From assembly GCA_965242835.1 (NCBI GenBank), contig OZ251506.1:13179-77178 (forward strand): a stretch of 64,000 bases of DNA, read 5' to 3'. This document shows positions 37,625 to 55,400 of this stretch, in pieces (within the stretch, counting starts at the first letter, position 1; each line of letters begins with the position of its first letter). The notes below the pieces were generated by a model, which saw only the letters and a list, made by a program, of their open reading frames with translations, was not told where the DNA came from and ran no database searches. The translations under genes were made by a program, and so were the position numbers. This stretch comes from Vicinamibacterales bacterium (GTDB lineage: Bacteria > Acidobacteriota > Vicinamibacteria > Vicinamibacterales > UBA8438).

Positions 37625-37981
37625 GATGCCGAGCGAACGGCGGGACCGCCGGCGGCGAAACGACGCCGCCCGCGATCTGGATCGTGCGCCGGGATTCCGG
37701 CGCGGGCGGCGCACCCGGAGGAGTGGCGAGACGACCCGAACGCCCGCTCCGATCCGCCCCGGCCGACACGGTCCGCCGCCGGTTGAACCGCGCGGCCGGT
37801 GGAACGATAATCCTCTGATGAACCCGACCCGGGAACCGGCGGCGATGGACCGGAAGTTCAAGCGCCCGGACTGCATCCAGGGCGTGATCACGCCTCCGGT
37901 CCGACTCGTTCCGGACGAGGACCGGTCCGTCGTCCTCGTCGCCGCCCGACGGATCGCGGGATTTCGGCCGACCAGCTGCTC

Positions 37982-38989
37982 ATGGCGAACGGCAAGCTGC
38001 TGAGACAGCTCATTCGCTCCGGCGCGGACGGAGACCTCGACGCCTTCCGCAGCGCGGCGAAGGAGGTCGTCGCCGACGAGCGCCAGAAGCAGCACCACCT
38101 GCTTGCGAACGACCTCGAGACCATTCTGTACGGGCGCGCCCGCACGCCGTCCTCGCCCGCCCTGCGGCGCCTGGCCGAGGCGATCCCGGAGGACCGCGAG
38201 CGGGGCATTCCGCTGTTGTCCCTGCGCGAACCCGTCCGCCGCATCGAAGACGTCGTGCTGTCGCGCGACAACCTGTCGCTGGTCAACGAGATCATCCGCG
38301 AGCACAATCGAGAGGAAGTGCTGAAGACCTACGGGCTGCGTCCGAGCGATCGCATCCTGTTCTGCGGGCCGCCCGGCTGCGGCAAGACGCTGACGGCCGA
38401 GGTGATCGCCAGCGAGCTCGGCCGGCCCTTCGCCGTCGTTCGCACGGACAGCGTCGTCTCGTCCTTCCTCGGCGAGACCGCCGCCAACCTCCGCAAGGTG
38501 TTCGACTTCGCCGCGGCGACACCCTCGGTCATGCTCTTCGACGAATTCGACGCCCTGGGGAAGGAACGCGAGGACGCTTCCGAACACGGCGAGCTGCGCC
38601 GCGTCGTGAACGCCGTCCTCCAGATGCTCGACGCCTACGACGGACGGAGCCTCATCCTCGCCGCCACCAACCACGAGGGAATGCTGGATTCCGCCGTCTG
38701 GCGCCGCTTCGACGAAGTGCTGTTCCTGAAGCCGCCGACCCGCGCCCAACTTTGTCGTCTGCTCGGCGTGAAACTGCGCGGCGTCCGCCGCGATTTCGAC
38801 GTTCGAGAGCTCGCGGAGCGGGACGTGCTGAAAGGCTTGACCCACGCGGACGTCGAACGCATCGTGCGGCGGGCCTTGAAGGAAATGGTCATCGAGGGCG
38901 GCGACCTGCGCCTGAACGTCGCCCACATCGACGCGGCGTTGCGCCGCGAGAGCGCGAGAAGACAGCGAGCGACAAGGCGCCGAGTGTAG
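37982..38989 (+). CDS. ietA: AAA+ ATPase, IetA-like
   Basis: Walker A ILFCGPPGCGKT, Walker B VMLFDEFDAL, and ...LILAATNH...RRFD (sensor / Arg finger region). It sits directly upstream of an S8 peptidase gene. Confidence 0.7.
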   Translation: MANGKLLRQLIRSGADGDLDAFRSAAKEVVADERQKQHHLLANDLETILYGRARTPSSPALRRLAEAIPEDRERGIPLLSLREPVRRIEDVVLSRDNLSLVNEIIREHNREEVLKTYGLRPSDRILFCGPPGCGKTLTAEVIASELGRPFAVVRTDSVVSSFLGETAANLRKVFDFAAATPSVMLFDEFDALGKEREDASEHGELRRVVNAVLQMLDAYDGRSLILAATNHEGMLDSAVWRRFDEVLFLKPPTRAQLCRLLGVKLRGVRRDFDVRELAERDVLKGLTHADVERIVRRALKEMVIEGGDLRLNVAHIDAALRRESARRQRATRRRV

Positions 38990-38993
38990 TTGA

Positions 38994-41339: not shown

Positions 41340-41560
41340 CGGATTCCGCCCGCCGCCGTTACTGTCGGTACTGCCGGTTCACCATTGCCGTTCATGGGAA
41401 GTTGGCCGTGGCGTGTGTCCGGGCGGTCGGGGACGACGGCGTCGTCTACGAGGGGCAACTGAGCAACGAGCAGACCGGCGAGTATCACGGCTACCCGATG
41501 AAGAAGGGCGACGGCTTCGCCGGCTTCATCGGCGAGGAGTGGGAAAGGCGCGGAACATGA
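41336..41560 (+). CDS. Hypothetical 74-aa protein
   Basis: The start overlaps the ietS stop (ATGA). Sequence: MTDSARRRYCRYCRFTIAVHGK...GEYHGYPMKKGDGFAGFIGEEWERRGT. I recognise no family. Confidence 0.45.
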   Translation: MTDSARRRYCRYCRFTIAVHGKLAVACVRAVGDDGVVYEGQLSNEQTGEYHGYPMKKGDGFAGFIGEEWERRGT

Positions 41561-42420
41561 CGCTTCATCTATCGACCGCGTGGTGTCGGCAGCCCGGCGA
41601 CGAAGCCGCCGGATCGCCGGAATCGCCGGAAGACGAAGCTACCCTGAGCCGGATCGCCGTGAACGTCGATCGGATCCGGCTGACGCAGACGCTCGACGCC
41701 CGGACGATGCGCGTGCACGACGGCGCGAACCTCTCCGCCTACCGGCTGGCGGAGTGGCTGACCTGGAACTGGTGGCGTCTGCGTTGGGAGCCGCCGCACC
41801 AGAACGTGCAGCGCGATCGCCGGCCGGAGTGGCGGCAGGCGCACGAACTCGCGGGCATCGGCGGCGGCTGGCTCTGGCCGAACGTCACCGTCCGGTCTGA
41901 CGGTCTGCGCATCGGGTTGGACGCGCTGCCGTCGCCGGAGGTTGAGACCGAGCCGATGCGCTACCTGGCGAGTCGGAGCACGGCGGTTTCCGCGGAGTCG
42001 TTCGAGGCGGGGGTCGACGACTTCGTGGAGCGCGTGCTGGCGCGGCTGGACGAGTGCGCGCTCGGCGGCACGGACCTGGCCACCGCCTGGAAAGAACTGG
42101 CGGCCGAGCGCGCCGACCCGGAATCGGCCGCGTACCGGAAGGTCGAGGCGTTCCTCGGCCGCGACGTGGACGAGGCCGATCCGCGGCAGGTGGAACGGAT
42201 CATTCTGGACGGGCGGACGCTCGGCAGCGCGGCCATGTCGGAAGTGGCGGCCGCCGGGTTTCACACCGCCGACGAGCTCCGCGAGGAGGCGCGCAGCGCG
42301 GGCTTCGATACGAGCGCCGACAACCGGGCGCGGGTGCCTGTCCCGAGAAGCGTGATTTCCGGCACTACTCCATCGACAATGTATCCTGCCTTTGGACCTC
42401 GCGTCCCCTCCGCATACTGA
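41557..42420 (+). CDS. Hypothetical 287-aa protein
   Basis: The start overlaps the upstream stop (ATGA). Sequence: ...NLSAYRLAEWLTWNWWRLRWEPPH...GGGWLWPNVTVRSDG... I recognise no family. Confidence 0.5.
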   Translation: MTLHLSTAWCRQPGDEAAGSPESPEDEATLSRIAVNVDRIRLTQTLDARTMRVHDGANLSAYRLAEWLTWNWWRLRWEPPHQNVQRDRRPEWRQAHELAGIGGGWLWPNVTVRSDGLRIGLDALPSPEVETEPMRYLASRSTAVSAESFEAGVDDFVERVLARLDECALGGTDLATAWKELAAERADPESAAYRKVEAFLGRDVDEADPRQVERIILDGRTLGSAAMSEVAAAGFHTADELREEARSAGFDTSADNRARVPVPRSVISGTTPSTMYPAFGPRVPSAY

Positions 42421-42424
42421 CGCC

Positions 42425-43621
42425 ATGAAAAACACTTCCCCCGCCATGCCGTTCATCGCCCCGGCGACTCACGACGACCCGGCTCCGCCTACCGGTATGC
42501 GCCGTTCCGCGGAACCACCGGCCGTGGCGACTCCTCCGCCGTCGTCAGCCGCGTCCTTCGCGAAACGTTCTCTTCCCAGGCCATCCGCCATCTATTCGAT
42601 TCTCTGGCATTTCGCCGACGAGCGCCATCGCGTCTACCTGCAACGGGTCGCCGGACAGCCGCAGCCGTGGACCCGCGATCCCGTGCTGTCGACGTACCGA
42701 TTCACGAACGCCTTCCGCGCCGCCGACCGCGTGAGCCAGTACTTGATCCGCATGGCCTACTCGGACCACGACGCGGACGACGACACGCTGTTCCTCCGGA
42801 CCCTGCTGTTCAAGATCTTCAACCGGATAGACACGTGGGAGAGCATCGTCCGCGCCATCGGGCCGCCCACCGCCGACAGCTTCGACCACCGCGCCTGCGA
42901 AGCGCTCCTCACCGAACGCCGCCGAGCCGGCGGGCGAATCTACTCGGCCGCCTACATCATGCCGACGGGCGGAGACTCCGGATCGCCGAAGCACACGATG
43001 CACCTTCGACTGCTGCGCCGCATGCTCGACGAACGGCTTCCGGCGAAACTCAGACGTTCCCGATCCTTGAAGGACGCCTACGGCCTTCTCCTGGCGTATC
43101 CGACCCTGGGACCGTTTCTCGCGTTCCAGTACGCGATCGACCTCAACTACACGAAGCTGACCTGCCACTCCGAATCGAGCTTCGTCGTGGCCGGCCCCGG
43201 GGCCCTGGACGGGTTGTCGAAGTGCTTCGAATCCCTCGGGGAGTACTCCCCGGACGACGCGATCCTGTGGTTGTCCGACCGCCAGGACGACGAGTTCCGG
43301 CGCGCCGACCGGCCCTTCGACGGGCTGTGGGGACGGTCCCTGCGCCCCATCGACGTCCAGAACCTGTTGTGCGAGGTCTCCAAGTACACCCGCGCGACCC
43401 ACCCCGGGATCAAGGGCCGCGCCGGGCGTGGACGCATCAAGCAGAAGTTCACCGCGGCAGGTCCCTTGCCCCGCCCCTTCTTCCCTCCGAAATGGGAATT
43501 GAACGAGCGCGTCGAAAAGTGGATTGCGGAAAACGGCCACGCTCCGGGCGAACGCCGGCGGCCCCTCCAGACGGATCTGCCGCTCGTCATGACGGCTTCC
43601 GGTAGCCCAGATCCCGGTTGA
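42425..43621 (+). CDS. Putative DNA base hypermodification protein (5-hmdU DNA kinase helical domain / aGPT-pyrophosphorylase-like family)
   Basis: ...IYSILWHFADERHRVYLQRVAGQPQPWTRDPVLSTYRFTNAFRAADRVSQYLIRMAY...LFLRTLLFKIFNRIDTWESI...PFLAFQYAIDLNY... This matches my memory of proteins annotated as 'nucleotide kinase domain-containing / DNA base hypermodification' proteins. It was not searched. Confidence 0.5.
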   Translation: MKNTSPAMPFIAPATHDDPAPPTGMRRSAEPPAVATPPPSSAASFAKRSLPRPSAIYSILWHFADERHRVYLQRVAGQPQPWTRDPVLSTYRFTNAFRAADRVSQYLIRMAYSDHDADDDTLFLRTLLFKIFNRIDTWESIVRAIGPPTADSFDHRACEALLTERRRAGGRIYSAAYIMPTGGDSGSPKHTMHLRLLRRMLDERLPAKLRRSRSLKDAYGLLLAYPTLGPFLAFQYAIDLNYTKLTCHSESSFVVAGPGALDGLSKCFESLGEYSPDDAILWLSDRQDDEFRRADRPFDGLWGRSLRPIDVQNLLCEVSKYTRATHPGIKGRAGRGRIKQKFTAAGPLPRPFFPPKWELNERVEKWIAENGHAPGERRRPLQTDLPLVMTASGSPDPG

Positions 43622-44684
43622 GCAGGTCCAGGGTCACCATGCCGCCTCCATGACGGCCCAGTTCCCGGAACACGCGGAATCCCTCGAGAATGGCCTCTTC
43701 CCACTGCCACAACGGAACCTTGTCGACCTCGAACCCCCTCACGAAACCCTGGATGGTCTTGAGCAGGTCGTAGTCGACACGGTCGATTCCCTCGTAATAG
43801 CCCACTTCCTTCGCTCTGCTGAACACGGTCGCCGACACCGCCTCTTCGATGATGCCGGCCCGCGCGCCGTCCTCGCTTTCGTCCACTTCCGAATTGCTCT
43901 TGCGCTTGCACTTCAACAGACCGCGCAGGATCGGCGACCATCCGAGATATACGGCATATGAGAAATGGAACACGTCGTGGAACCTGTAGCCGTCGGGAGT
44001 GCCGAAATTGTCCGTCAGGCGATCTCCCAGATTGAGACCGTTGCAGCGCAGGATGACGACCGGCCTGTCGCCGCTTCTCGTCTCCCGAAACTCGACCTTC
44101 AGCTTGCGCGGAATCCGCTCCTCCTCCGGGAACTCGCTGTCGAACAGCGGCGCCCCCTTTCGATCCCGCGGCCATCGGCTCCCGGTCTTCTCGACGTTCT
44201 TCCGGGCCGCATCTTCAAGGCAGACGTTCGAACCGGCCGCGACTCGAACAAGAGCCCGCCAGACCGCCGCCAATCCCGGTGACGCATCGGCGTTCGAGTC
44301 CCGTCCCAACGTCTCGATCAGCGCGCCGACAGCGGCGCCGAGCGCAAGCGCATTCTCGACACCTTCTCCATTCGATCGCTCCTGGTCCGCGGCCGCGTCG
44401 TCCAGCTTCGTCACGTCGAACGGCTTCAGAACCGCCGTCAGGCGAGCGAAGTACCACAGAAAATCTCCGAGCTCCTCGCCAAGCCGTTCGGGGGCAATCG
44501 GATAGGCCGCGTCCTCCCGGCTTCTTTTCTTCAGCTCCGCGAGAATGCCGCCGGTTTCACCGAACAGACCCGCGGCCAGAAGCTCGACGTGCTTCGGCTT
44601 CCCGGCCAACCGGTCCGTTCTCTCGGCGCCCTCACGATACCCCACGAACCACGACGCGGCATCCATGCCTTCGTCCTCCTCCAT
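43587..44684 (-). CDS. MazG-like nucleoside triphosphate pyrophosphohydrolase with an extra C-terminal domain
   Basis: ...LLAAGLFGETGGILAELKK...LGEELGDFLWYFARL (MazG EExxE/D-type helix pair). The ATG at 44684 overlaps the vapC stop (TGATG); an alternative ATG lies at 44708. The C-terminal ~200 aa are unassigned. Confidence 0.6.
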   Translation of the reverse strand: MEEDEGMDAASWFVGYREGAERTDRLAGKPKHVELLAAGLFGETGGILAELKKRSREDAAYPIAPERLGEELGDFLWYFARLTAVLKPFDVTKLDDAAADQERSNGEGVENALALGAAVGALIETLGRDSNADASPGLAAVWRALVRVAAGSNVCLEDAARKNVEKTGSRWPRDRKGAPLFDSEFPEEERIPRKLKVEFRETRSGDRPVVILRCNGLNLGDRLTDNFGTPDGYRFHDVFHFSYAVYLGWSPILRGLLKCKRKSNSEVDESEDGARAGIIEEAVSATVFSRAKEVGYYEGIDRVDYDLLKTIQGFVRGFEVDKVPLWQWEEAILEGFRVFRELGRHGGGMVTLDLLNRDLGYRKPS

Positions 44685-45100
44685 CACTCGAGCATCGGCA
44701 TCATGCACCCTTCCGCGCGCGCCGCGGCGCGAAGGGCCCGGTCCAGCGTCGCCAGCGGTAGTCCCCGCCGCATTGCGAGTTCGAGGTACGTCGCATCATA
44801 GGCGGTAAGGTCATGCGCCGCCGCGAGATCGAGGACCGGACCCCAGGCCCGGGTCGTCGAAATCGGATCGACGTCAATCGGCAGCGCATCGAGCTGCATG
44901 CGCAGCCGCGGCCACTCTTCCGTGCCGACCCGGCGGCGGCGCGTCGCGGCGAGAAGGGCGTTGGCCGTCTCCGTCGCCCACAATGCCGGAACCAACGCCC
45001 GGTCGTCGCCCAGCGCGTCCCGCAACCGGCCCGTCGCGCTGGTCGCTTCGTCCCGAAACACCCACGCCATGGTGACCGAGCAATCCAGAACGAACACCAT
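44684..45100 (-). CDS. vapC: PIN-domain toxin (VapC-type)
   Basis: MVFVLDCSVTMAWVFRDE...TETANALL...AHDLTAYDATYLELAMRRGLPLATLDRAL (acidic PIN residues in the expected contexts). Confidence 0.8.
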   Translation of the reverse strand: MVFVLDCSVTMAWVFRDEATSATGRLRDALGDDRALVPALWATETANALLAATRRRRVGTEEWPRLRMQLDALPIDVDPISTTRAWGPVLDLAAAHDLTAYDATYLELAMRRGLPLATLDRALRAAARAEGCMMPMLE

Positions 45101-45864
45101 CAGTAACGCCGCCCTTCGTCGATCATGCGGCGCACCGACATCCCGCCCAGGCTGTGTGACCGTGCGAATTCCTCGAGACCGCGGACCGCTTCCCGAACCG
45201 CGCGCGCGGGGTGTGGTTGAAATGGCGGGATTCTTCGCCGCTTGTCCCACGGCAGGCCCATGAGTTTCCTGTCCCACTCCAGCGGGTCGTTACGACAGCC
45301 AGCTTCATCGAGGCTACGCAGCCACGCCACGCACTCGGCCACCAGATCTTCCGAAAAATTACACTTGTGGCCGGGTCCGCCCTTGCAGACCTCCCTCCTG
45401 AAGGATATCGGAATGTCGGGGCCGTGGCCGCCCCAATAGACGAAATCGTCGCTGACGAGAACACGATCCACCCGGGTATCGTGATCGATGTTTCGACAGT
45501 TCGGTGTTCCGTCCTCGAGACTGTGGTGGGAGTTCGCCTGGATCCACTTGCCGGTGGCGTCGTTCCGGTGATAAATGTTGTCACCGAACGCGTTGCGAAT
45601 ACTGACGTGCAGGTCGGGTCGCTTCTCTCGGAAGCGGAGATCCCGCCAGTACTCGTTGAACGTCATCTTCTCGGTCACGCGCATGGCGAAGACGACGTGC
45701 GCGTCTCGTTTGTGCTTCTTCGACCCGGTTCCCACGATCCAGTCGCCGATCTGGGCCGTTCGCCGTATCTCCGGCTTGCACGTGGCCAGCGTGCAGAATC
45801 CGTGGAACGGATTCGGAGCGAATCCAAAATCTCTCGCCACTACGTACGAATACAGTTTAGGCAC
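45100..45864 (-). CDS. Nmad2-like (nucleotide-modification-associated domain 2) protein fused to an antitoxin-like C-terminal tail
   Basis: N-terminus: (M)PKLYSYVVARDFGFAPNPFHGFCTLATCKPEIRRTAQIGDWIVGTGS... The last ~40 aa (...AVREAVRGLEEFARSHSLGGMSVRRMIDEGRRY) look like the C-terminus of the small antitoxins that precede this kind of PIN toxin. GTG start at 45864; the stop overlaps the vapC ATG. Confidence 0.5.
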   Translation of the reverse strand: MPKLYSYVVARDFGFAPNPFHGFCTLATCKPEIRRTAQIGDWIVGTGSKKHKRDAHVVFAMRVTEKMTFNEYWRDLRFREKRPDLHVSIRNAFGDNIYHRNDATGKWIQANSHHSLEDGTPNCRNIDHDTRVDRVLVSDDFVYWGGHGPDIPISFRREVCKGGPGHKCNFSEDLVAECVAWLRSLDEAGCRNDPLEWDRKLMGLPWDKRRRIPPFQPHPARAVREAVRGLEEFARSHSLGGMSVRRMIDEGRRY

Positions 45865-46351
45865 TCGCCTCTCCTCGTCCGCACGAATAGCGCGGGATCA
45901 TCCGATAGCCGTGCATCGAACCGTCCTGATTGTACCACGCCCCCGATTTGCCGTTGATGGCGTCGATGATGCTCTCACCGTTCCAGCCGACCACGGCGTC
46001 CGCATGGCGATCGAGAGCGGGCGGCAACTCGCAGTCACGCTCGCCCCTCGCCCAGACGCCTACGATCCGCTTGCCCTGCTTCCGGGCGTAGTCGATTTCC
46101 CATTCCACCCATTCGCTGCGCCTGGTTCTTTCCGAGACGTACACCACCAGGCAACCGGCCTGCCGTATGCGCGGAGCGAGTATCTCGGACTTGATGTACT
46201 GCTCGCTGCGCGCGTTGTTCGGGTTGTCCGCGGTTATGGAATAGTCGCGACACGTCATGCCGTGCCGTCCGAGCAGGTCCTTGAGATCCGCCAGGCCGGC
46301 GTCGTCCTCGTGCCGGTGGCTGATGAACACGTTCCTGATCTGTTCCGCCAT
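45857..46351 (-). CDS. TIR-domain protein (DUF1863/ThsB-like)
   Basis: MAEQIRNVFISHRHEDDAGLADLKDLL...CLVVYVSERTRRSEWVEWEIDYARKQGKRIVGV (a conserved Glu in a W..E context). Confidence 0.7.
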   Translation of the reverse strand: MAEQIRNVFISHRHEDDAGLADLKDLLGRHGMTCRDYSITADNPNNARSEQYIKSEILAPRIRQAGCLVVYVSERTRRSEWVEWEIDYARKQGKRIVGVWARGERDCELPPALDRHADAVVGWNGESIIDAINGKSGAWYNQDGSMHGYRMIPRYSCGRGEASA

Positions 46352-46355
46352 CGCC

Positions 46356-46838
46356 TCACTCTCCTTCCTGCCGCTCCAGATTCGTCAGGTCCTCGACGCC
46401 GGCGATCTTCGCCAGCAAGCGGTTGTAGTTACGCAAGTCCGCCTGCAGATGTTCCAGCTGCTCCCGGAATTCCCTTCGCTTCTCCGTGTCCCGGAAAGCG
46501 CCCGACAGAGACTCCCGGTGCCACTTCGCGGTGAACGGGCGCACCACCTGGTTCAGGACGGGTATCGCCACCTTGCTGAATTGCACCGTACCCTTGCCGC
46601 GCCGCCGCAGGATTTCGCGGGTGGTGGGGAACAGCGAGTGGACGCTGTCGAGGGCGGTCTGTTCGTCGCCGACGCTCGCCGGCAGCGGTTGCGTGACGAT
46701 CCGGGTCAGCATCTCGACGTACAGTTCCCACGCGGCGTTTCGGTCTTCGTCGTTGAAGTCGATCTCGACCGTGACCCACTTGGGGCCCAGGCGGACCTTC
46801 GCCAAGCCGAACCGCTCGAAATGATCTCCCAGGTTCAT
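46356..46838 (-). CDS. Hypothetical 160-aa protein, first gene of the TIR sub-block
   Basis: Its stop lies 4 nt from the TIR start. It looks helical, with no TM segment and no family that I recognise. Confidence 0.5.
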   Translation of the reverse strand: MNLGDHFERFGLAKVRLGPKWVTVEIDFNDEDRNAAWELYVEMLTRIVTQPLPASVGDEQTALDSVHSLFPTTREILRRRGKGTVQFSKVAIPVLNQVVRPFTAKWHRESLSGAFRDTEKRREFREQLEHLQADLRNYNRLLAKIAGVEDLTNLERQEGE

Positions 46839-46923: not shown

Positions 46924-47706
46924 TCAGTGAGCCGGGACATTGCGACTTTCCTCGCTTTCCGCGTTCTGGTGGAGATCCATCAGGAGTCTCCGCATGGCGG
47001 CCTTGGATCCGTTCAGATATGCATACGACGAATGAACGGTCAGGCCGCCGATTCTGCTGCCGACCTCGCGCACGACGCAGCACTGGAGTCTGGCGAGACC
47101 CAGCAGGTTGCCCGGAACCTTGTAGCGGTAGTCGTGGCTTCGATACAGCGCGGTCAAGTGCACCGCATCCTGGAACAGCTTGAATGTAAGATGGGAAAGA
47201 CAGGGACCTCCCCTGCGGCGCGTCCCATCCTGCGCGGGGCTGTAGAGAGACATGTCGTATTCGCCTTCAGCAACACCGAGATCATAGCACGATCTCTTTG
47301 GCCCCGGTTTTTTGATTTCGCTCTTCATCTTGTCGATCAACTGTTCCAAGGGGTTGACGTGGCCGCCGCTCGCATCCGACCGTCGGACCAGGCGATGAGC
47401 GTAGGTGCCCCAGTGATTCGACGGATGCTTCTTGATCACGGGATAGACTGTATCGGGATAGTAATCCAGAACCCCAGCAAGACCGCGGTGGCGGTACTCA
47501 TGGCCGGGAAAGATCGTCTCCGCAACCGTGTGCATCGAAAATTGTTTCTCGTCCTTCAGGAACTTGTCGATAATCGAGTGACTTCCGCCAGCCGTCGGCG
47601 ATTCTATCGCCAAGGTCAGATTCAGCATGGGCCCGTGGACCAGCAGATGGTCCGCCGCCTGCATCCAGGCGTCCAGGCGCGTATCGGTTTCGATTAGTTT
47701 CGCCAT
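46924..47706 (-). CDS. Thymidylate synthase / dNMP hydroxymethylase-fold protein
   Basis: ...RRGGPCLSHLTFKLFQDAVHLTALYRSHDYRYKVPGNLLGLARLQCCVVREVGSRIGGLTVHSSYAYL aligns by eye to the ThyA core PCH..FQF.....L.CQLYQRS.D..LG.PFNIASYALL......G......H..GDAHIY, including the catalytic Cys. The ATG at 47706 (or GTG at 47709) overlaps the upstream stop. Confidence 0.6.
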   Translation of the reverse strand: MAKLIETDTRLDAWMQAADHLLVHGPMLNLTLAIESPTAGGSHSIIDKFLKDEKQFSMHTVAETIFPGHEYRHRGLAGVLDYYPDTVYPVIKKHPSNHWGTYAHRLVRRSDASGGHVNPLEQLIDKMKSEIKKPGPKRSCYDLGVAEGEYDMSLYSPAQDGTRRRGGPCLSHLTFKLFQDAVHLTALYRSHDYRYKVPGNLLGLARLQCCVVREVGSRIGGLTVHSSYAYLNGSKAAMRRLLMDLHQNAESEESRNVPAH

Positions 47707-48338
47707 CACGCCGCATCCTCCGTCAGCACCAGCACGTCCCGCAGGTGCTGGATCATGAAGGCGTCATCGAGCCAGGCATGGCCGGCGTCGGCCCACGCCG
47801 CGCCCCAACTGTTCCGGATGAGGAAGCGGCGCGCCGTGTGCGTCGTACCGATTCCCACGGCCGCGACCGCGTGGAGTCCTCTGACCGGGCCGGCCGAGGA
47901 GATGACCCACGGCGCAGTCGGAGCATAGAAGGCGTCCGTCGTCGAAATGCCCAGAACGGGGACGTGGCCGGCGTCGAGAAGCGCTTCGACGTCATCCGGA
48001 CTCTGCTGCGCCGACGCGCTCCGTCGCCGATACAGGGTCAGATTCGCGGGCGGCGTCCACGCGGGCGGCGGTTCGCTCTCCTGATACGGGCAATCCGATT
48101 CGACAGGTTGTCCGGGGTCGAGAAGGGCGCGGGAGACGTTCGGGAAGTCGACGCCCGTGGGGGAGTCGGTGCTTCCCGAAGCGAAGTGGTGCAGGTACTC
48201 GGGCGACAGCGCCACCGTCGATCCGCGTGCATGTTCGTGCACCGTCGTGGACGCGTGCGCGAGGCAGGTCGGACGCGCTCCCTGATCGCGAACCGGACCG
48301 AGCAGCGGGCGGTAGTCGTGGCGGATGGTGACGTTCAT
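47706..48338 (-). CDS. Papain-like (C1 family) cysteine peptidase, cytoplasmic
   Basis: LGPVRDQGARPTCLAHAST (Cys), GLHAVAAVGIG (His), FLIRNSWGAAWADAGHAWL (Asn / NSWG). No signal peptide. The ATG at 48338 overlaps the upstream stop (ATGA). Confidence 0.7.
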   Translation of the reverse strand: MNVTIRHDYRPLLGPVRDQGARPTCLAHASTTVHEHARGSTVALSPEYLHHFASGSTDSPTGVDFPNVSRALLDPGQPVESDCPYQESEPPPAWTPPANLTLYRRRSASAQQSPDDVEALLDAGHVPVLGISTTDAFYAPTAPWVISSAGPVRGLHAVAAVGIGTTHTARRFLIRNSWGAAWADAGHAWLDDAFMIQHLRDVLVLTEDAA

Positions 48339-49318
48339 GCAACCCGTTCCAGGGCGCCGCGTCTGGTGCGCCGCGCCCAACCTTCACGTTCTTTTCCGTG
48401 CCCGTCGACGTCGATCCGGATGCGGGCCAGGGTGGCGCGGCTCCACGGCCGGACGTGTTCGAAGACGAGTTCATGCACGCCGGGCGCCTTGAACCTCACG
48501 TACGACACCCGTGACGATCGCGCGCCATACGCGTGATCGAGATCCGGCGTCCGCTCGCCGACGACGTCGACCTCGGCGTCCGCGTCGACGAGACGCCAGA
48601 CGTAACCGGCGGAGGCGTGGTCCTGGACGTGGACGGCGAACAGGTCGTCGGGGCCTGCTTCAATGAACGTCTCGCTGTCGGCCGCCGTCAGCGCCCACAC
48701 GTCAGCCCACGAGTTCGTGATCGATCCCGCGGGCGCCAACTCGTGCTTCAGCGTCTTCACCGACGTTTTCTGGAGTTGGCGGACTTCGGGGCGCGTGAGA
48801 ACCCCGGACGTGACCAAGGCCCAGCACGCGGCTTGGTAGCTGATGCCCAACCGCAGGGACAGTTGATAGATGTTGGAGGGCAGGCGGAGCTTGTCCCTGG
48901 TCCACTCATGACGCTGCGCGGACGCGAGAAGGAGGCGCTTCGGAGCCAGAAGCTCGGCGGCGAACGCATCCGCCGCCGCCTCGTGCGTCGGTCTCGACGC
49001 CGGTGCGTTCCGTCCCGCGAACCCGACCGCCTCGTCGAGGCTCGTTCGGTGTCCGAGCCACAGATGGCCGAGTTCGTGGGCGACCGTGAACCGTTGCACC
49101 GGCAACCCGAGTTTCGAGGTCACGATGATTCCGCGCGCCTGGTCGTTGACGGTGATGAACGCGCCCCACAGCTTGTCCAGCGGCCGGAACAGCAGCGGGA
49201 TGCCGCGGTCGGCGACGGCCCCGATGACGTCGAAGCTGGTCCGGGCGCCGATCGGCGACTCGTCGAACACGGCCGCGGCCCCGCTGACGGCGCGCAGTAT
49301 CTCCGTGCGCCTGGTCAT
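48335..49318 (-). CDS. ImmA/IrrE-type zinc metallopeptidase fused to a chagasin-like (I42) cysteine-peptidase-inhibitor domain
   Basis: The N-terminal half has FTVAHELGHLWLGH (HExxH) plus ...EAAADAFAAELLAP. The C-terminal ~110 aa (48338-48676) read ...LFAVHVQDHASAGYVWRL...YGARSSRVSYVRFKAPGVHELVFEHVRPWS... Compare the chagasin motifs NPTTG(F/Y)xW, G.GG and RPW. Confidence 0.6.
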   Translation of the reverse strand: MTRRTEILRAVSGAAAVFDESPIGARTSFDVIGAVADRGIPLLFRPLDKLWGAFITVNDQARGIIVTSKLGLPVQRFTVAHELGHLWLGHRTSLDEAVGFAGRNAPASRPTHEAAADAFAAELLAPKRLLLASAQRHEWTRDKLRLPSNIYQLSLRLGISYQAACWALVTSGVLTRPEVRQLQKTSVKTLKHELAPAGSITNSWADVWALTAADSETFIEAGPDDLFAVHVQDHASAGYVWRLVDADAEVDVVGERTPDLDHAYGARSSRVSYVRFKAPGVHELVFEHVRPWSRATLARIRIDVDGHGKEREGWARRTRRGALERVA

Positions 49319-49656
49319 TTCGTCTTCCTCGATCTCAGGAATTGCGCGAATCGCAGCACCTCGCCCCGATCCGTGTCCGACAGATCGGTGGCGGCGCGCG
49401 CCAGCAGGCGGACCGACTCCGGCTGAGAGGCTTCCTGGCCATGACCCGCGAGGCTCTCCATCGTGGTCTGGTACAGCTTGGCCAGTCGGCCGAGTTCTTC
49501 GACGCTGACACGCCGGGCGCCGCTCTCGATCAGCGAGATCGCCGACCGCGGCACACCGAGATGGCCGGCGACCTCCTCCTGGGAGAATCCGCGGTACTCG
49601 CGCTCCTCTCTGAGCCGTTTTCCGAGGACGTTCCGAGTCGTTCCCCGGTCGTTCAT
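49315..49656 (-). CDS. XRE-family helix-turn-helix transcriptional regulator
   Basis: ...LGKRLREEREYRGFSQEEVAGHLGVPRSAISLIESGARRVSVEELGRLAKLY... It overlaps both neighbours by ATGA. Confidence 0.85.
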   Translation of the reverse strand: MNDRGTTRNVLGKRLREEREYRGFSQEEVAGHLGVPRSAISLIESGARRVSVEELGRLAKLYQTTMESLAGHGQEASQPESVRLLARAATDLSDTDRGEVLRFAQFLRSRKTK

Positions 49657-50015
49657 GAATCGACCTCCTGAGAAATGCGCTCCGCCGGGTCGGAACCTCC
49701 CTTGCCGAAGACGAGATGCCGGATCGTGTCTTCGATGCCGGCGTATCCGCCGACGCGAATGCGCTTGATGTCGAAAGGGCAGCCGTGCTTCTCGAAGATC
49801 GGCGCCATCCGGGCGACCGTCTTGGAGTCGACGACAGGCATGGTCCCCCATGGATCCGCTCCAGCCGCGCCGTTGCCGAGAACCTGGACGTCCCAGCCCG
49901 CCTGTTCTTTGGCCCACCACTCGCGGAGCTCCGCCGCCAACCGCATGCGGGGGGCGGCCACGTCGCTCTGCGCGGGTTCGGGCGGGGGGCCGAACACGAT
50001 CTTGGGCTGCAACAT
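49653..50015 (-). CDS. Hypothetical 120-aa protein with a carrier-protein-like (ACP/PCP) helix-II motif
   Basis: ...GTMPVVDSKTVARMAPIFEKHGCPFDIKRI...YAGIEDTIRHLV compares with E. coli ACP ...[28 protein letters not shown]...TTVQAAIDYI. It lies 98 bp downstream of a PPTase gene. The resemblance is weak and is an inference. Confidence 0.35.
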   Translation of the reverse strand: MLQPKIVFGPPPEPAQSDVAAPRMRLAAELREWWAKEQAGWDVQVLGNGAAGADPWGTMPVVDSKTVARMAPIFEKHGCPFDIKRIRVGGYAGIEDTIRHLVFGKGGSDPAERISQEVDS

Positions 50016-50113
50016 CCGGCATCCGTTCGATAATCAGACACTCTACAGAAAAAACGTCCGATGGTCAAACCATCGCGATCTGCACCCAAGTTCGCTCACG
50101 GAGAAGAACGAGT

Positions 50114-50761
50114 TCACACGCCGGCCGGCCACAGGGCGGCCGAGGCGATCCATGACGGAACGGCCCTGGAACAGCGCATGTCGAGCGCGACGCCGCATGC
50201 CCGGGCGACGCCGCGACAGCGAACGGGGCTGATCGAGGTCCACGACACGGCGACTTCCTCAAGACCGAGCGGACGGCCGAGAATCGGGTGCAGGGCCTTG
50301 AAGGCGGCTTCCTTGACGGAGAAGAGAACGACCCGTCCACCGGCCTCCGGCATCGACGCCCACGGTTGTTCGCCGACGCCCAGTCCGCGGAGGTTCGGGA
50401 CGGGCTTCGCGTCCAGGCGTTCCACGTCGATGCCGATCGACCTCGCTCGATCGGCGCCGGCGACAGCGGCGGCCACGGTCGTGCCCTTGTGACTCACGCT
50501 GCCGGTGCAGCCTTGCGGCCACTCGCGAGCTCCGGAGGCCAACCGCGCCGGCTCGACGGCAGGAAGACCCATGCTCGCGAGGAGATCCGCCAAGCACTTC
50601 CCGGTTGCGTCCCGCTGGGCCTCCATCAGGACCCGCTCGCGGGCGGTCGGCGGAACGTCGCGAGGACGTTGGAGCCAATGGGCGAACGACCCGCCTGAAA
50701 TCACGAGCTCCGGCGCCAAACGCCGGAGCTCGTCGATCAGCCGGTCCGATTGGAGATGCAT
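50114..50761 (-). CDS. 4'-phosphopantetheinyl transferase (EntD/Sfp-type)
   Basis: ...GSVSHKGTTVAAAVA...SIGIDVERL...VLFSVKEAAFKALHP (the GxDxE and FSxKEAxxK motifs). Confidence 0.75.
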   Translation of the reverse strand: MHLQSDRLIDELRRLAPELVISGGSFAHWLQRPRDVPPTARERVLMEAQRDATGKCLADLLASMGLPAVEPARLASGAREWPQGCTGSVSHKGTTVAAAVAGADRARSIGIDVERLDAKPVPNLRGLGVGEQPWASMPEAGGRVVLFSVKEAAFKALHPILGRPLGLEEVAVSWTSISPVRCRGVARACGVALDMRCSRAVPSWIASAALWPAGV

Positions 50762-51050: not shown

Positions 51051-51127
51051 CCTTGGCGTTCGGCGCGGGAAGCGTTGCGGACGTTCGCTCGGTGTAGACT
51101 CGTCATCAGGTGTCGACGCCATATGCC

Positions 51128-51346
51128 ATGCGAACCATCATAAACCTCGCGGACGATCAGGTGCGGCGGCTCGCCGAGGTGTGTCGGCGGGAAGGCGTCT
51201 CCCGCGCCGAGGCGGTCCGCCGCGCGGTCGCCGACTACCTCGACGCGCGGTGCCTGCGCGAACGGGAAGACGCGTTCGGCCTCTGGCGGGGCCGCCGAAT
51301 CGACGGCCTCGAGTACGAGCGGCGGCGGCGGCGGGAGTGGCCCTGA
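51128..51346 (+). CDS. vapB: Ribbon-helix-helix antitoxin (VapB/CopG-type)
   Basis: MRTIINLADDQVRRLAEVCRREGVSRAEAVRRAVADYL... Its stop abuts the GTG start of the PIN gene. Confidence 0.75.
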   Translation: MRTIINLADDQVRRLAEVCRREGVSRAEAVRRAVADYLDARCLREREDAFGLWRGRRIDGLEYERRRRREWP

Positions 51347-51712
51347 GTGCGCGCCCTGCTCGACACCAACGTTCTGATCGACTACCTCGGCGGCATCGAG
51401 GCCGCCCGCGACGAGATCGCCCGCCACGCCGATGCGTCGATCAGCCTGATTACGTGGATGGAGGTGCTGGCCGGCGCTTCCGACGACCGGGAAACGGCCC
51501 GGCTCGAGTCGTTCCTGTCCAGCTTCGAGCTGGTCGCCATCGACGCCGAGGTGAGCGAGCTGGCCGTCGCCATCCGGCGCCGGCATCGCATCCGCCTGCC
51601 CGATGCGATCATCCGGGCGAGCGCCCGCACCGTCGGCGCCGTACTCGTCACACGGAACACGAAGGACTTTCCCGCCGACGATCCGGGGGTTCGGGTGCCG
51701 TATTCGCTGTGA
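51347..51712 (+). CDS. vapC: PIN-domain toxin (VapC-type)
   Basis: (M)RALLDTNVLIDYL...LITWMEVL...RLPDAIIRASA...LVTRNTKDF. Confidence 0.85.
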   Translation: MRALLDTNVLIDYLGGIEAARDEIARHADASISLITWMEVLAGASDDRETARLESFLSSFELVAIDAEVSELAVAIRRRHRIRLPDAIIRASARTVGAVLVTRNTKDFPADDPGVRVPYSL

Positions 51713-51801: not shown

Positions 51802-52104
51802 ATGGCCATCAACATCGCGCATCGGCGGGATCTCGACGACCGCGTCGAGCGGCTGGCCGGCCGTCTCTCTCTCCGCGGGCGGGGGAGGAAGGTCGCCGTC
51901 ATCGAGCGGGCGCTGGAGGCGCTGGAAACACAGGTGGCGCGCAGCCGTCCGGACCGCGCGGCCATCCTGGCCTCTCTGGAGCGGTACGCGGAAGCGGGGA
52001 CGCGCCTGCGCGAGAGGCCGATCGACGCGGAAGCCGCGGATCGCCGTCCGGCGTCGCTGCGCCTCCAGGACGCCCTGTACGACGAGCGCGGGCTGCCGCG
52101 GTGA
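51802..52104 (+). CDS. vapB: VapB-type antitoxin (Rv0623/PSK-like fold)
   Basis: MAINIAHRRDLDDRVERLAGRLSLRGRGRKVAVIERALEALE... It overlaps the downstream PIN gene by 4 nt. Confidence 0.65.
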   Translation: MAINIAHRRDLDDRVERLAGRLSLRGRGRKVAVIERALEALETQVARSRPDRAAILASLERYAEAGTRLRERPIDAEAADRRPASLRLQDALYDERGLPR

Positions 52105-52499
52105 TCGTCGTCGACACCTCGGCGATCCTCGCCATCCTGCTGCCGGAGGACGACGCGGCGGCGTACCGGGCGCGGATCGCGGACGCCGGGCATGCGCTGG
52201 TGTCCGCGGTGTCGGCGGTGGAGCTGGCCGCGGTCGCGAGCCGGGACGATGCGCTGTCCGATGCGGTTCGCGCCTTCCTGGAGGAACCGTTCGTGGCCGT
52301 CGAAACCGTCGACGCGGCGCAGGCATCGGCCGCCGCCGCCGCCTACCGCCGCTTCGGCCGGGGCCGCCATCCCGCCGGTCTCGACCTCGGCGACGTCTTC
52401 CCCTACGCGCTGGCCCGCACGCGGGGACTGCCGCTGCTGTTCAAGGGACGCGATTTCTCGCGGACCGACGTCGAGTGCGCGATCCCGTCGGAAACGTGA
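52101..52499 (+). CDS. vapC: PIN-domain toxin (VapC-type)
   Basis: (V)IVVDTSAILAILLPEDD...VSAVSAVEL...LDLGDVFPYALARTRGLPLLFKGRDF. Its stop overlaps the drmA ATG (GTGATG). Confidence 0.85.
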   Translation: MIVVDTSAILAILLPEDDAAAYRARIADAGHALVSAVSAVELAAVASRDDALSDAVRAFLEEPFVAVETVDAAQASAAAAAYRRFGRGRHPAGLDLGDVFPYALARTRGLPLLFKGRDFSRTDVECAIPSET

Positions 52500-55400
52500 T
52501 GCCGCCGCCCGCCGCCGCTGTTTCTTCCCCCACCGTCCGCGACCGGCTCGCCGAGGCGCTCGCGCTGGATCTGGTCGGCCCCGGCCCGGACGACCCGCTC
52601 GCGGCGGAGCGGCTGCCGGGGCGGGAGCGGCCGTCGAACTGGTACCTCACCGGCTTCCTGGTCCCCTCCGGCCTGCCGCCGGAGCGCTGCGCGGACGCCG
52701 ACGAGGACGACGACTTCGACGCCGAGGTCCCCGGGCAGGCCGGCCTCCTCGAAGAGTCGAGCGAAGACCGGAAGGCGGCGAAGCGGGGCTGGTTCCCGTC
52801 GTCGATCGGGCTGAGCTTCCTCGTCGCGGCGGAGGCCGAACGGCTGGCCGTCACCGTCCGCTGGGGCGACTACGCGCAGGAGACGGTCGAGTCGGCGGAG
52901 GGCGGGGCGAAGCAGGTCTGGCGCCGGACGCCGCGGATGGTGGAGGTGGAGACGCCCCTGGCGCGGGACGGCGACGCCGAGGGCGCGGGGACGGCGGACG
53001 ACGGCGCGGCGCCGATCTACGACGTGCCCGGTTCCGGCGGCCTGCAGCTCCAGGTGGTCGAGCGCGCGCTCGACGCGGCCGCCGCGGGCGCGGGGTTGCC
53101 GCCGGGCGCCCGCGCCGTCTCGGTCTTCCTGGTGAACCGCCGCGAGCCGCCGCCCGAGGGCGAAGACCCCGAGTCGGCCCATGCGTTCCAGGCCGGCCTC
53201 GAGGTGCGCGGCGACCGGCCGTTCCCGGCGCGGCCCGACCTGCGCGGGGCGCGCGGCGGCGCCGGGGACGACTGGGACGAGCGGGTCGCCGACCTGCAGT
53301 ACGCCGACACGCCGGAGTACGCCGCCGGGCACGGCGTCTCGGCCGACTGGGAGCTGACCGGCGGCGTCTGCCGTCTGGTGCGGACGACGTGGATGCCGGC
53401 CGCCGACGTGCGGAAGACCGACACGTTCGACCCGCCGGGCGTGGAGCTGTCGATGGCGGCGCTCGGCGCGCTGGCCGGGGCCGCCGAGGTCGAGGCGGCG
53501 CTTGGGCCGCTGGCGGCGGCGTACCGCGCCTGGATCGCGGAGCGCCGCGCGGAGATCGCCGCGAGCGGCGCGGCGGCGCCTGCCGCGGCGGACGAGCCGC
53601 GGCGCCCGGCGGCGCCGAACGGCGCGCAGCGCGAGACCGCGGAAGAGCCGCGGCGCCCGGCGGCGCTGGACCGCGCGTCACGCGACTCCGTGGACGAACC
53701 GACGCGCCCGGCGGCGCTGGACCGCGCGCGGCGCGCGACCGCCGAAGAGCTGCTGCGGCAGGCGGACCTGGCCGCGGAGCGCATCGAGCGGGGCGTCGCG
53801 GTGCTGGCCGCCGACGAGGCCGCGCGCGACGCCTTCGGCATGGCGAACCGGGCGGTGGCGCGGGCGCTGCGGCAGCGGCTCGGCGTCGAGGCGCCGCGCT
53901 GGCGCGCCTTCCAGCTCGCCTTCCTCTTGCTGAACCTGCCCGGCCTCGCCGACCCGCGCGCGCCCGACCGGACCGTCGTCGACCTGCTCTTCTTCCCCAC
54001 CGGCGGCGGCAAGACCGAGGCGTACCTGGGGCTGGCGGCGTTCACGATGGTGTTGCGGCGTCTGCGCCGCCCGGGCGGCGGCGGGCGGGCCGGCGCCGGC
54101 GTCAGCGTGGTCATGCGCTACACGCTGCGCCTGCTCACCCTCGACCAGTTCGGACGGGCGGCGGGGCTGGTGTGCGCGCTGGAGCTGGAGCGCGAGCGGG
54201 CGCCCGAACGGTACGGCGCGTGGCCGTTCGAGATCGGCCTGTGGGTCGGCAAGGCGGCCACGCCGAACCTGCTCGGCCGCAAGGGCGACGGACGGTCCGA
54301 TTCGGCCCGCGGCAAGGTGAACCGGTTCCAGAGCGAACCCGACCGCCGGCCGTCGCCGATCCCGCTGGAGAACTGCCCCTGGTGCGGCGAGCGCTTCCGG
54401 CCGGAGTCGTTCACGCTGGAGCCGGACGCCGACCGCCCGCGCGCCCTGCGCATCGTCTGCGCCGACTTCGCGTGCGACTTCTCCGGCGGCCGGCCGCTGC
54501 CGGTGGTGGCGGTCGACGAGGCGCTGTACCGCCGCCTGCCCGCCTTCCTGATCGCCACGGTGGACAAGTTCGCGTCGCTGCCGTGGGTCGGCCCGTCCGG
54601 CATCCTGCTCGGCGGCGCCGGCCGCGGCGACGCGCACGGGTTCTACGGCCCCGCGGAGCCGGGGCGGGGGAGGCCGCTGGCCGCGCCGCTGCCCCCGCCG
54701 GACCTGATCGTGCAGGACGAGCTGCACCTGATCGCGGGGCCGCTCGGCACGATGGCCGGCCTCTACGAAGCGGCGGTCGAGGCGCTGGCCGCGCGCGCCG
54801 CGGACGGGCGTCCGGCGCGGCCGAAGATCGTCGCGTCCACGGCCACCGTGCGCCGCGCGCAGGACCAGATCCGGGCGCTGTTCGCCCGGCCCGAGACCCG
54901 GGTCTTCCCGCCGCCCGGCCCGGAACGGAGCGATTCGTTCTTCGCCCGCACGGCGCCCCCCGCGACGCCCGCGCGGCGCCATCTCGGCGTCGCCGCGCCC
55001 GGCCGGAACCCGAAGGTGCTGATGCGCCGGGTGCTGGTCACGCTGATGGCCGCCGCCGAGCGCGAGTACCGCGGCGCGGGGGGACACCGGAACCACGACA
55101 ACCCGGCCGACCCGTACATGACGGTGCTCGCCTACTTCAACAGCCTGCGCGAGCTGGGCGGCGCGCGGCGCATCGTCGAGGAAGAGGTCGGCAGCACGCT
55201 GAAGGAGTACGGGGCGCGCCGGCGGGTCGGCGAAGCGGATGGCCGGTTCCGGGACCGGCGCACGTTCTCGGAGGTGATGGAGCTCACCTCGCGCGTCTCG
55301 ACCGCCCAGGTGGCGGCGGCGCGGCGGCGGCTGGAGCGCGCGTTCCACGAGCCGGACCGCGTCGACTGCGCCCTCGCCACCAACATGATCTCGGTCGGGC

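Follow-up and report, generated by a model that had tools for sequence, protein, structure and literature searches.

Switches of the CapH/CapP, IrrE/DdrO and ImmA/ImmR type are encoded by adjacent genes for an XRE-family repressor and an M78-family metallopeptidase with an HExxH motif and a downstream Glu; CapP itself consists of a peptidase, a helix-turn-helix (HTH) and a GAF domain, with DNA binding in the inter-domain groove. Chagasin-type inhibitors of cysteine peptidases (family I42) are defined by an immunoglobulin (Ig) fold and three loops, L2 (NPTTG), L4 (GXGG) and L6 (RPW/F) (PMC2607524). Features of both were found within a single gene trio at positions 47706-49656 of the DNA stretch analysed here, 64,000 nucleotides of contig OZ251506.1 from a Vicinamibacterales bacterium (hereafter the window, to which all positions refer). 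The trio encodes an XRE repressor, an M78 metallopeptidase fused to a C-terminal I42 domain (M78::I42) and a papain-family (C1) cysteine peptidase, and shares with the switches named above both the adjacency of the first two genes and the HExxH motif with its downstream Glu. The reading favoured below, which we consider about evenly balanced between right and wrong, is that of a CapH/CapP-type switch in which the GAF sensor has been exchanged for an I42 domain clamping a propeptide-less C1 peptidase in a 1:1 cytoplasmic complex.

Architecture of the XRE, M78::I42 and C1 proteins

A check of open reading frames (ORFs) and coordinates showed that the span comprises exactly three genes, all on the minus strand: the CapH-like XRE repressor (49315-49656; 113 aa, with an HTH and a C-terminal helical region), M78::I42 (48335-49318; 327 aa) and the C1 peptidase (47706-48338; 210 aa). 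ATGA overlaps were read from the sequence at the XRE/M78 and M78/C1 junctions, and also between XRE and the gene for a small protein immediately upstream, up120. At the other end of the trio, the overlap between C1 and the following gene, p261, which encodes a thymidylate-synthase-like (TS-like) enzyme, is GTGATG, so that p261 is translationally coupled to C1, and four consecutive junctions on the minus strand (up120/XRE, XRE/M78, M78/C1 and C1/TS-like) are coupled in all. The three-gene architecture, the coordinates, the domain calls and the ATGA overlaps proposed in an earlier reading of the DNA letters without database searches (the sequence-only reading) were all found to hold. As the G+C content of the stretch carrying these genes is 0.62-0.69, compared with about 0.75 in its flanks, the base composition suggests that the stretch was acquired horizontally.

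The XRE protein was recognised by Pfam HTH_31 (E-value 5e-15) and HTH_3 (1.7e-12), and its best PADLOC match was capH (3e-14), nearly over its full length (residues 9-109). In M78::I42, the zinc-metallopeptidase domain and a helical middle domain (48734-49318, minus strand) occupy residues 1 to about 195, with a Pfam Peptidase_M78 match (PF06114, 2.6e-14) over residues 37-165. The best PADLOC match of the protein was capP (1.4e-15), which extends over the N-terminal 60% of that model, profile positions 11-143 of 242 only. The zinc site is intact, with the HExxH motif and the downstream Glu formed by H81, E82, H85 and E113 (H96, E97, H100 and E129 in CapP), residues that are invariant even in distant variants. 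An AlphaFold2 model built on an alignment of 30 homologues (predicted local distance difference test score, pLDDT, 81; predicted TM-score 0.83) divided the protein into helices over residues 1-195, a beta domain over 207-306 and a last helix at 309-326. When the N-terminal part was compared with the PDB by Foldseek, IrrE (3dti) was matched at 5.5e-6 and the PprI-single-stranded DNA (ssDNA) complex 8sln was among the top fold matches. These results bore out the assignment of an ImmA-type peptidase with an XRE partner. The adjacent, overlapping XRE gene with its full-length capH match is the candidate substrate, its cleavage being putative.

By both Pfam and Foldseek, M78::I42 has no counterpart of the C-terminal GAF-like sensor domain of CapP and IrrE, the C-terminus being occupied by the I42 domain. 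In the M78 domain, the loop joining HExxH to Glu113 (residues ~86-112; 49024-49075, minus strand) is as long as the cysteine-switch loop of CapP, and an Asp (Asp95, in S-L-D-E) is invariant, also in distant variants, where CapP carries the switch Cys; Asp95 may form an Asp-based autoinhibitory switch. These two features bear on an alternative that we judge fairly unlikely, namely that the I42-C1 contact is a sensor input: bound C1 would keep M78 off until a phage protein occupied, inhibited or was cut by the C1 active site (bait or guard). I42 would thereby be displaced, and M78 would cleave XRE and induce the nucleotide enzymes encoded nearby, which would be the real effectors. The I42 domain does sit at the regulatory (GAF) position, in a protein made up of peptidase, helical domain and I42, and the invariant Asp lies in the HExxH-E113 loop at the site of the CapP cysteine switch. 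However, any effect of C1 binding on M78 is putative, no candidate phage ligand is known, and C1 has kept an invariant catalytic set, for which a mere bait would have no need unless it were catalysis that is sensed.

The C-terminal extension was confirmed as a chagasin/I42 Ig-like domain (48401-48706, minus strand; residues ~205-306), as had been proposed from its motifs. Pfam Inhibitor_I42 (PF09394) matched residues 225-296 at 3.7e-8, with 34.0 bits against a gathering score of 27.2. In Foldseek searches of the PDB, all significant matches of the beta domain were to the chagasin family, with E-values of 2e-5 to 9e-4 and a probability of 1.0. Target TM-scores against the I42 model were 0.56-0.68 for EhICP2 (3m86), chagasin (2h7w, 2nnr, 2oul_B and 2nqd_A) and amebosin (6cjz), and 0.43 for PbICP-C (3pnr_B, also at a probability of 1.0); the chagasin structures matched include the free inhibitor as well as its complexes with cathepsin L or falcipain-2. 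The strands of an Ig-like beta-sandwich were modelled over residues 207-306, at a pLDDT for the domain of only 59-85. When PDB sequences were searched with a profile of the domain, seven chagasin-family chains and nothing else were returned, with weak scores (E-values of 0.06-1.1), the best-scoring alignments (amoebiasin-2 and chagasin) covering most of the domain.

All three loop motifs align in register with those of chagasin and EhICP2. At L2, HASAGYvW is in register with NPTTGFaW, its Gly, its aromatic residue and the following Trp being invariant, and Ser stands in place of Thr31. Substitutions of T31 and T32 are tolerated by chagasin (PMC2607524). Distant variants of the cassette in which the trio lies carry NPSTGY, TPSTGY or NRTTGY at this position. 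At L6, R290, P291 and W292 are invariant in 30 sequences, and most distant variants have RPW, QPW or KPF. HASAGYVW and HVRPW align with the chagasin loops in the way that the sequence-only reading had proposed, whereas the correspondence of YGARSS with GXGG went no further than the first Gly: at L4 the protein has Y264-G265 (YGARS), of which only this Gly is conserved in the motif, and the Haloarcula protein has YGSSG. Among 30 homologues of 61-89% identity, the invariant loop residues were S236, A237, G238, W241, Y264, G265, E287, H288, R290, P291 and W292. Half of the domain's 22 invariant residues thus lie in the loops (11), and the loops remain recognisable down to about 25-35% identity. 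PF09394 matched all seven distant variants scanned, at or above the gathering score in five.

Beyond the I42 domain, a C-terminal tail (48338-48400, minus strand; residues 307-327) carries the motif G-[KP]-E-x-x-G-[WL]-x-R-x-x-R, which is kept in variants down to about 30% identity. Its residues G308, E310, G313, R316 and R317 are invariant, and the AlphaFold2 model predicts the helix 309-326 here. The tail could serve as a docking or cleavage element. Three family members, P0020 (441 aa), P0353 and P0381 (~460 aa), exceed the others in length by about 113-130 aa, and could represent either fusions of XRE with M78::I42 (RmrA-like) or long-insert I42 variants such as those in loci L103, L106 and L110.

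The C1 peptidase matched Pfam Peptidase_C1 (PF00112) at 6.5e-8, with 33.4 bits against a gathering score of 20.7, and full-length alignments over the mature domain were obtained with dionain-1 (4e-6), Der f 1 and cathepsin K among PDB sequences. The enzyme is catalytically complete: all 42 close homologues, and all 26 members of a second set that takes in distant ones, share Q19, C25, H156, N176, S177 and W178 without exception. The next gene had been called a C1 peptidase with intact Cys, His and Asn and no signal peptide, and it is one. The features of a secreted zymogen are absent: only about eight residues precede the mature domain, and there is neither a hydrophobic N-terminus nor a propeptide. 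Typical C1A enzymes are kept inactive by their own propeptide, and since this one has none, a separate inhibitor would be a logical necessity. More remote C1 relatives, at 24-30% identity (L107-L162), proved to be generic C1 peptidases outside any such cassette and were set aside as unrelated.

Distribution of the fusion and its pairing with C1

A homologue search with M78::I42 returned 1386 matches, and statements on the properties of these matches rest on the best 120. These are proteins of about 327 aa with 61-89% identity (one truncated match of 311 aa aside), nearly all with both Pfam domains. When the I42 part alone was searched with HMMER against 1.84 billion cluster representatives at 50% identity, 126 matches were obtained, and at least 52 of these clusters are 320-350-aa proteins matched at about residues 203-330, that is, fusions. 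The M78::I42-C1 architecture repeats across hundreds of independent contigs, far beyond what chance would give. Genome loci were found in Vicinamibacterales, other Acidobacteriota, Gammaproteobacteria, Pseudomonadales, Binatia, Longimicrobiales and Planctomycetota, and plasmid homologues in Rhizobium, Bradyrhizobium, Sphingomonas, Sphingobium and the archaeon Haloarcula marina, 11 of the 16 plasmids being conjugative. The RefSeq names for the carriers' genes are only 'ImmA/IrrE family metallo-endopeptidase' and 'C1 family peptidase'. In 2.9 million viral contigs (IMG/VR) the fusion was not found; only ordinary M78 proteins were matched there, in alignments ending before I42, and a phage or prophage origin was rejected on these grounds.

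Pairing by contig gave 31 M78::I42/C1 pairs. A scan of metagenomes was further seeded with the C1 family and the loci annotated by hidden Markov models (HMMs), taking in every C1 relative of more than about 30% identity whose upstream DNA could be read (the informative loci L083, L085-L092, L094, L095, L097, L099-L101, L103, L104, L106 and L110). In every one of these, XRE, M78 and C1 are contiguous, with M78::I42 directly upstream of C1. In three of them the I42 domain was missed by our own HMM and was recovered by Pfam (3.9e-14, 7.4e-12 and 3.5e-6), the respective proteins having the L2 loops TPSTGY, NPSTGY and NRTTGY. The same order, M78::I42 upstream of C1, was seen on the Rhizobium and Haloarcula plasmids. 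Both genes are present in 11 of 13 loci from genomes and the ENA. The other two, L008 and L009, lack C1: in L009 a single deletion took I42 and C1 together, and in L008 C1 is gone and M78::I42 is frameshifted. Conversely, in the decayed loci L003 and L004 the nucleotide enzymes have been lost while XRE, M78::I42 and C1 are intact. No C1 without I42 was seen among the informative loci, which are a small sample. This is the pattern that a protease harmful without its inhibitor would give, the toxicity of C1 being putative. Natural I42-C1 fusions were absent from the top matches of the homologue searches.

This pattern, taken with the properties of the two domains, also bears on the possibility that I42 and C1 do not interact at all, I42 being directed at foreign cysteine proteases of phages or competitors, or being a structural Ig domain, and the adjacency of the genes reflecting shared regulation only. 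The known bacterial chagasin-like inhibitors Cip1 and Cpi1 do act on the proteases of other organisms, and the L4 motif is degenerate. However, co-occurrence of the two genes is strict and ancient, they are translationally coupled, C1 is never found without I42 upstream and has no propeptide of its own, and within the I42 domain conservation is highest in the inhibitor loops. The lack of an interaction is therefore considered very improbable.

Cultured carriers were noted for the distant variants, namely Rhizobium leguminosarum WSM1689 (L243; plasmid NZ_CP007047, locus 6187-11500, plasmid positions 464745-470058) and, among archaea, Haloarcula marina (L244; plasmid NZ_CP100410, locus 3212-9401). 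The loci encode the small Asp-Ser protein (the up120 homologue), XRE, M78::I42, C1 and the TS-like enzyme. Further genes across the two variants specify a uracil-DNA glycosylase (UDG), a dCTP-deaminase-like (DCD-like) protein, a small MazG-like protein, a dTMP kinase, a 'nucleotide kinase domain' protein resembling HMUDK_hel and a phosphopantetheinyl transferase (PPTase).

The conserved cassette and its defence-island setting

In essentially all loci the trio is the fixed core of a larger conserved cassette and not a free-standing module. The cassette order is PPTase, up120, XRE, M78::I42, C1, TS-like enzyme, MazG-like protein with a MazG_C domain and, convergent with these, HMUDK_hel. Its first gene in the window (50114-50761, minus strand) encodes a 4'-phosphopantetheinyl transferase of the Sfp/EntD type, recognised by Pfam 4PPT_N (2.2e-7) and ACPS (1.7e-6), both above the gathering score, and a homologue occupies the same position in L001-L007, L009, L010, L080 and L082. 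In the distant variant L090 an AcpS-type transferase is found instead (PF01648, 9e-16), and a Haloarcula gene is annotated as a PPTase. The second gene, up120 (49653-50015, minus strand), is conserved upstream of XRE in all cassettes. It encodes a small protein with an Asp-Ser motif (VDSK), in which D63, S64 and K65 are invariant in 26 close homologues. In distant variants the Ser is kept as DSK, DSL or DSV, as in IDSLTVVEIL (Rhizobium), LDSLTVVDV (L101) and also Haloarcula.

The invariant Asp-Ser, together with the presence of two unrelated transferase types, points to a phosphopantetheine carrier, and up120 could possibly be such a protein. As in the carrier-protein motif, Ser64 begins a helix (64-68) in the model, and an Sfp- or AcpS-type transferase is present in the cassettes. 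No Pfam match was obtained even at E-values up to 10, a profile search of PDB sequences found none, and the AlphaFold2 model (pLDDT 72) gave nothing better than an E-value of 5 in Foldseek. An hhalign comparison with a hand-typed acyl carrier protein (ACP) alignment placed the DS in register, but the match was weak (E-value 0.0023, probability 12%).

Downstream of the trio, p261 (46924-47709, minus strand) matched NCBIfam TIGR03283 at 6.8e-10 over residues 156-230 and, weakly, PF00303; PDB sequences gave no match. Its motif GGPCLSH...LYRSHDY is kept in all variants, and the gene follows C1 in nearly every locus. The MazG-like gene (43587-44708, minus strand), also conserved across cassettes, encodes a nucleoside triphosphate (NTP) pyrophosphohydrolase with a MazG_C domain (Pfam, 5e-77). 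The convergent gene (42392-43621, plus strand) matched HMUDK_hel (PF18723, 5.8e-94), the helical domain of 5-hydroxymethyl-deoxyuridine (5-hmdU) DNA kinases, with no kinase P-loop obvious by eye. Its position is conserved in L001, L005-L007, L010 and L080-L083, and many metagenome loci have it close by. Of the genome and ENA loci L001-L010 and L080-L082, those in which both p261 and MazG_C survive have the two genes directly abutting, as do L083, L092 and L094, and the insertion that separates them in the window (44684-46838, minus strand) is specific to it. This insertion carries p160 (46356-46838), encoding a 160-aa protein, a ThsB-like TIR gene (45857-46351; Pfam ThsB_TIR 1.3e-23, PADLOC ThsB 2.5e-61), Nmad2 (45100-45864; 1.8e-74) and a PIN gene (44684-45097; 6e-9); no ThsA-like partner of the TIR protein was seen. 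Other distant variants show a shuffled gene order and further pyrimidine or DNA-base enzymes. L090 has a DCD-like protein (PF22769, 1.5e-10), a UDG-like protein occurs in Rhizobium (by its RefSeq name) and, by eye, in L101 and L104, and in Haloarcula a dTMP kinase is annotated by RefSeq, alongside a homologue of HMUDK_hel named as a 'nucleotide kinase domain' protein. To judge from their families, the partner enzymes together resemble the toolkits with which phages make hydroxymethyl-dU and hypermodify thymidine.

A role of the trio as a portable regulator for diverse effectors, as with CapH/CapP, was rejected, as the same set of TS-like, MazG_C and HMUDK_hel partners was present in all informative loci. 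The sequence-only reading had described the peptidase and inhibitor as a toxin/antitoxin-like pair. The strict evolutionary coupling this implies was seen, but not the free-standing module, as the trio is embedded in the cassette; in this context a processing or regulatory role of the protease is as plausible as that of a killer effector. For the sensor-input alternative, the constant link of the trio to the same nucleotide enzymes is a point in favour, while the decayed loci L003 and L004, which keep the trio without those enzymes, are unexplained by a pure regulator.

The cassette genes bear most directly on another rival, in which C1 is a biosynthetic or processing enzyme and not a toxin: it would cleave or transfer a group carried by the Asp-Ser carrier-like protein, or mature the TS-like or MazG proteins, for a modified pyrimidine nucleotide or DNA base, with I42 only timing this step after induction. 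A PPTase of either of two unrelated types accompanies the cassette, the operon is always headed by the small protein with its invariant Ser (canonical DSLTVVE in some variants), and the TS-like gene is translationally coupled to C1. Furthermore, MazG_C, HMUDK_hel, UDG-like, DCD-like and dTMP kinase proteins add up to a hydroxymethyl-uracil-type pathway. Set against this, the carrier identity of up120 is unconfirmed, with no Pfam or Foldseek match and the low hhalign probability given above, the cassette has no adenylation or acyl-loading enzyme, and a tight-binding active-site inhibitor would be an odd timer for a biosynthetic step. Moreover, L004 has lost its nucleotide enzymes and retains the PPTase, the small protein and the trio. 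On balance, a processing role of this kind was regarded as rather unlikely.

A sigma-70-like promoter, TTGACC-17-TAGAGT, was located by promoter scan between the PPTase gene and up120 (50068-50040, minus strand), within a segment (50040-50075) that also holds an overlapping hairpin and TCGRAC repeats. The block GTTTGAC-N-TCGGAC ... -10 ... ATCGAAC can be aligned in 10 loci of different phyla, with invariant columns, and two TCGRAC copies about 31 nt apart flank the -10 element; judged by this conservation, the element is a plausible candidate for the XRE operator.

The cassette is a resident of defence islands, often nested in loci of the defence island system associated with restriction-modification (DISARM). 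PADLOC identified DrmMI (32615-37195, plus strand; E-value 0) and DrmA (~52550-56092, plus strand; 4.9e-262) on either side of it in the window, with an IetA (AAA ATPase)/IetS (S8 subtilase) pair between drmMI and the cassette (37982-41339, plus strand; 6.6e-92 and 4.8e-259). The class-1 DISARM locus of the window is thus split by about 15 kb of inserted systems. A position between drmMI and drmA was also found in L081 and, as remnants, in L008 and L009, and the cassette lies beside one of the two genes in L002, L005 and L080. As the cassette recurs here in phyla other than that of the window, the drmMI-drmA gap behaves as a hotspot into which systems insert repeatedly; alternatively, the cassette may be an accessory of DISARM. 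Residence in defence islands supports an immune or conflict role of the cassette, by association only.

Several other features were noted in these surroundings. A 335-aa ORF (41413-42420, plus strand) just upstream of HMUDK_hel, without Pfam or PADLOC matches, shares 60% identity with a homologue that lies close to the L005 cassette (15089-15976). The spacer after drmMI (37111-37720) is rich in repeats: a unit of about 90 nt occurs three times in tandem (83% matches), other repeated units are spaced by about 120 nt, and several inverted repeats are present. Two VapBC-like pairs, each of a ribbon-helix-helix antitoxin and a PIN toxin, were recognised by eye in the interval from the cassette to drmA (51110-51712 and ~51900-52499, both plus strand).

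Proposed mechanism and comparison with known systems

In the favoured clamp model, XRE would in the resting state repress the conserved promoter ahead of the operon, and I42 would insert its three loops into the active-site cleft of C1 to give a latent 1:1 cytoplasmic complex; as C1 has no propeptide, I42 would act as its safety catch. A stress signal, which by analogy with CapP, IrrE and ImmA might be DNA damage or ssDNA during infection, would cause M78 to cleave XRE and so induce the operon. C1 would become active only once M78::I42 had been lost, cleaved or displaced, and would then cut its targets, either as a proteolytic effector or so as to activate or process the nucleotide and DNA-base enzymes of the cassette. 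Binding of C1 by I42 is strongly inferred, and inference also underlies the trigger, the cleavage of XRE, the release of C1 and its targets.

Several observations weigh against this model. Since the two proteins would be made by coupled synthesis at about 1:1, induction alone cannot free C1, and the release step is conjecture. In the window clade, L4 is reduced to a single Gly and L2 reads HASAG instead of NPTTG, so that the strength of inhibition is uncertain. The model also gives no role to the PPTase and the small Asp-Ser protein. Finally, the trio always occurs with one set of nucleotide enzymes and not with diverse effectors, and with a single fixed set a dedicated biosynthetic or processing role fits at least as well as a generic killer protease. 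A more encompassing scheme, considered distinctly unlikely as it stands, would make the whole cassette an inducible immune or conflict system of a new kind. The switch would turn on a hydroxymethyl-uracil-type pathway, whose chemistry would be joined by the phosphopantetheinylated small protein and the clamped protease. An adduct on a pyrimidine nucleotide or DNA, linked to protein or pantetheine, might for instance be trimmed or released by the protease. Replicating phage or foreign DNA would thereby be poisoned or marked, with the chagasin domain on the sensor protease as a post-translational safety catch.

If the clamp model is true, this would be the first intracellular prokaryotic chagasin-type inhibitor holding the cell's own papain-like protease latent, and the first ImmA/CapP-type sensor protease in which an inhibitor of a second protease replaces the ligand-binding domain, so that two proteases would work in relay as part of a transcription switch. 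The trio is also the marker of a mobile eight-gene cassette that is widespread among Bacteria and Archaea, both on conjugative plasmids and in defence islands of chromosomes, where it often lies within a DISARM locus. Protease control is combined in this cassette with a PPTase and with nucleotide enzymes of the hydroxymethyl-uracil type. Its study might bring to light a new logic of immune effectors or a cellular route to hypermodified DNA, and the system is directly testable in cultured carriers through the plasmids of Rhizobium leguminosarum WSM1689, Sphingomonas, Bradyrhizobium and Haloarcula marina.

The searchable full-text literature yielded no account of the fusion, of the trio or of the cassette, a passing mention in Iyer et al. 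2013 being possible; the claim that the arrangement had not previously been described was in this sense sustained. Iyer et al. 2013 reportedly defined Nmad2, MazG_C and HMUDK_hel. Phage pathways for 5-hmdU and thymidine hypermodification, as outlined in the available excerpts of two accounts, employ a TS-like hydroxymethylase, a MazG protein or dUTPase, a 5-hydroxymethyluracil DNA kinase (5-HMUDK), a dCMP or dCTP deaminase and a nucleotide kinase (PMC5889632, PMC8989533). The cassette shares with such pathways the families TS-like, MazG_C, HMUDK_hel, DCD-like, dTMP kinase, UDG-like and Nmad2. Unlike them, it is cellular or plasmid-borne and under XRE/M78 control, and its fusion is not in viral contigs; neither a protease/inhibitor pair, a PPTase nor an Asp-Ser protein is mentioned among the pathway components in those excerpts (PMC5889632, PMC8989533).

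With type II toxin-antitoxin systems, including XRE-COG2856 pairs, the trio has in common a neutraliser encoded upstream of, and overlapping, a potentially harmful enzyme, with an XRE gene in the operon. A further likeness is that the trio persists in decayed loci and that inhibitor and protease are lost together. The trio differs in comprising three proteins, in being tied to a fixed set of nucleotide enzymes, and in its candidate toxin, a papain-like protease, which is not among the known classes of toxin in such systems. With the chagasin-type inhibitors (chagasin-cruzipain, EhICP, PbICP, PA-ICP, Cip1 and Cpi1), the I42 domain shares the Ig fold, the L2 pattern x-x-S/T-x-G-aromatic-x-W, the RPW of L6 and the PF09394 match, and the cognate C1 peptidase is likewise encoded in the same genome. 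Known I42 members, however, are free-standing proteins of about 110 aa that are secreted, periplasmic, membrane-anchored or from parasites, the bacterial ones acting on host proteases, whereas the domain described here is fused to a regulatory metallopeptidase, cytoplasmic, reduced in L4 and encoded in the same operon as a propeptide-less C1.

As with CapH/CapP, the XRE-M78 pair lies in a defence island upstream of the genes it presumably controls and near a promoter/operator-like element. In contrast to CapP and IrrE, which carry a C-terminal GAF domain, M78::I42 carries the chagasin/I42 domain and a conserved tail, and where CapP has its cysteine-switch Cys there is an invariant Asp at a similar position. 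Unlike CapH/CapP at loci of the cyclic-oligonucleotide-based anti-phage signalling system (CBASS), the pair sits mid-operon and is coupled to C1, the genes controlled being those of nucleotide enzymes and not CBASS. The kinds of component are therefore already known, and what is new is the combination of a CapH/CapP-like switch with an I42-C1 inhibitor pair inside an uncharacterised cassette.

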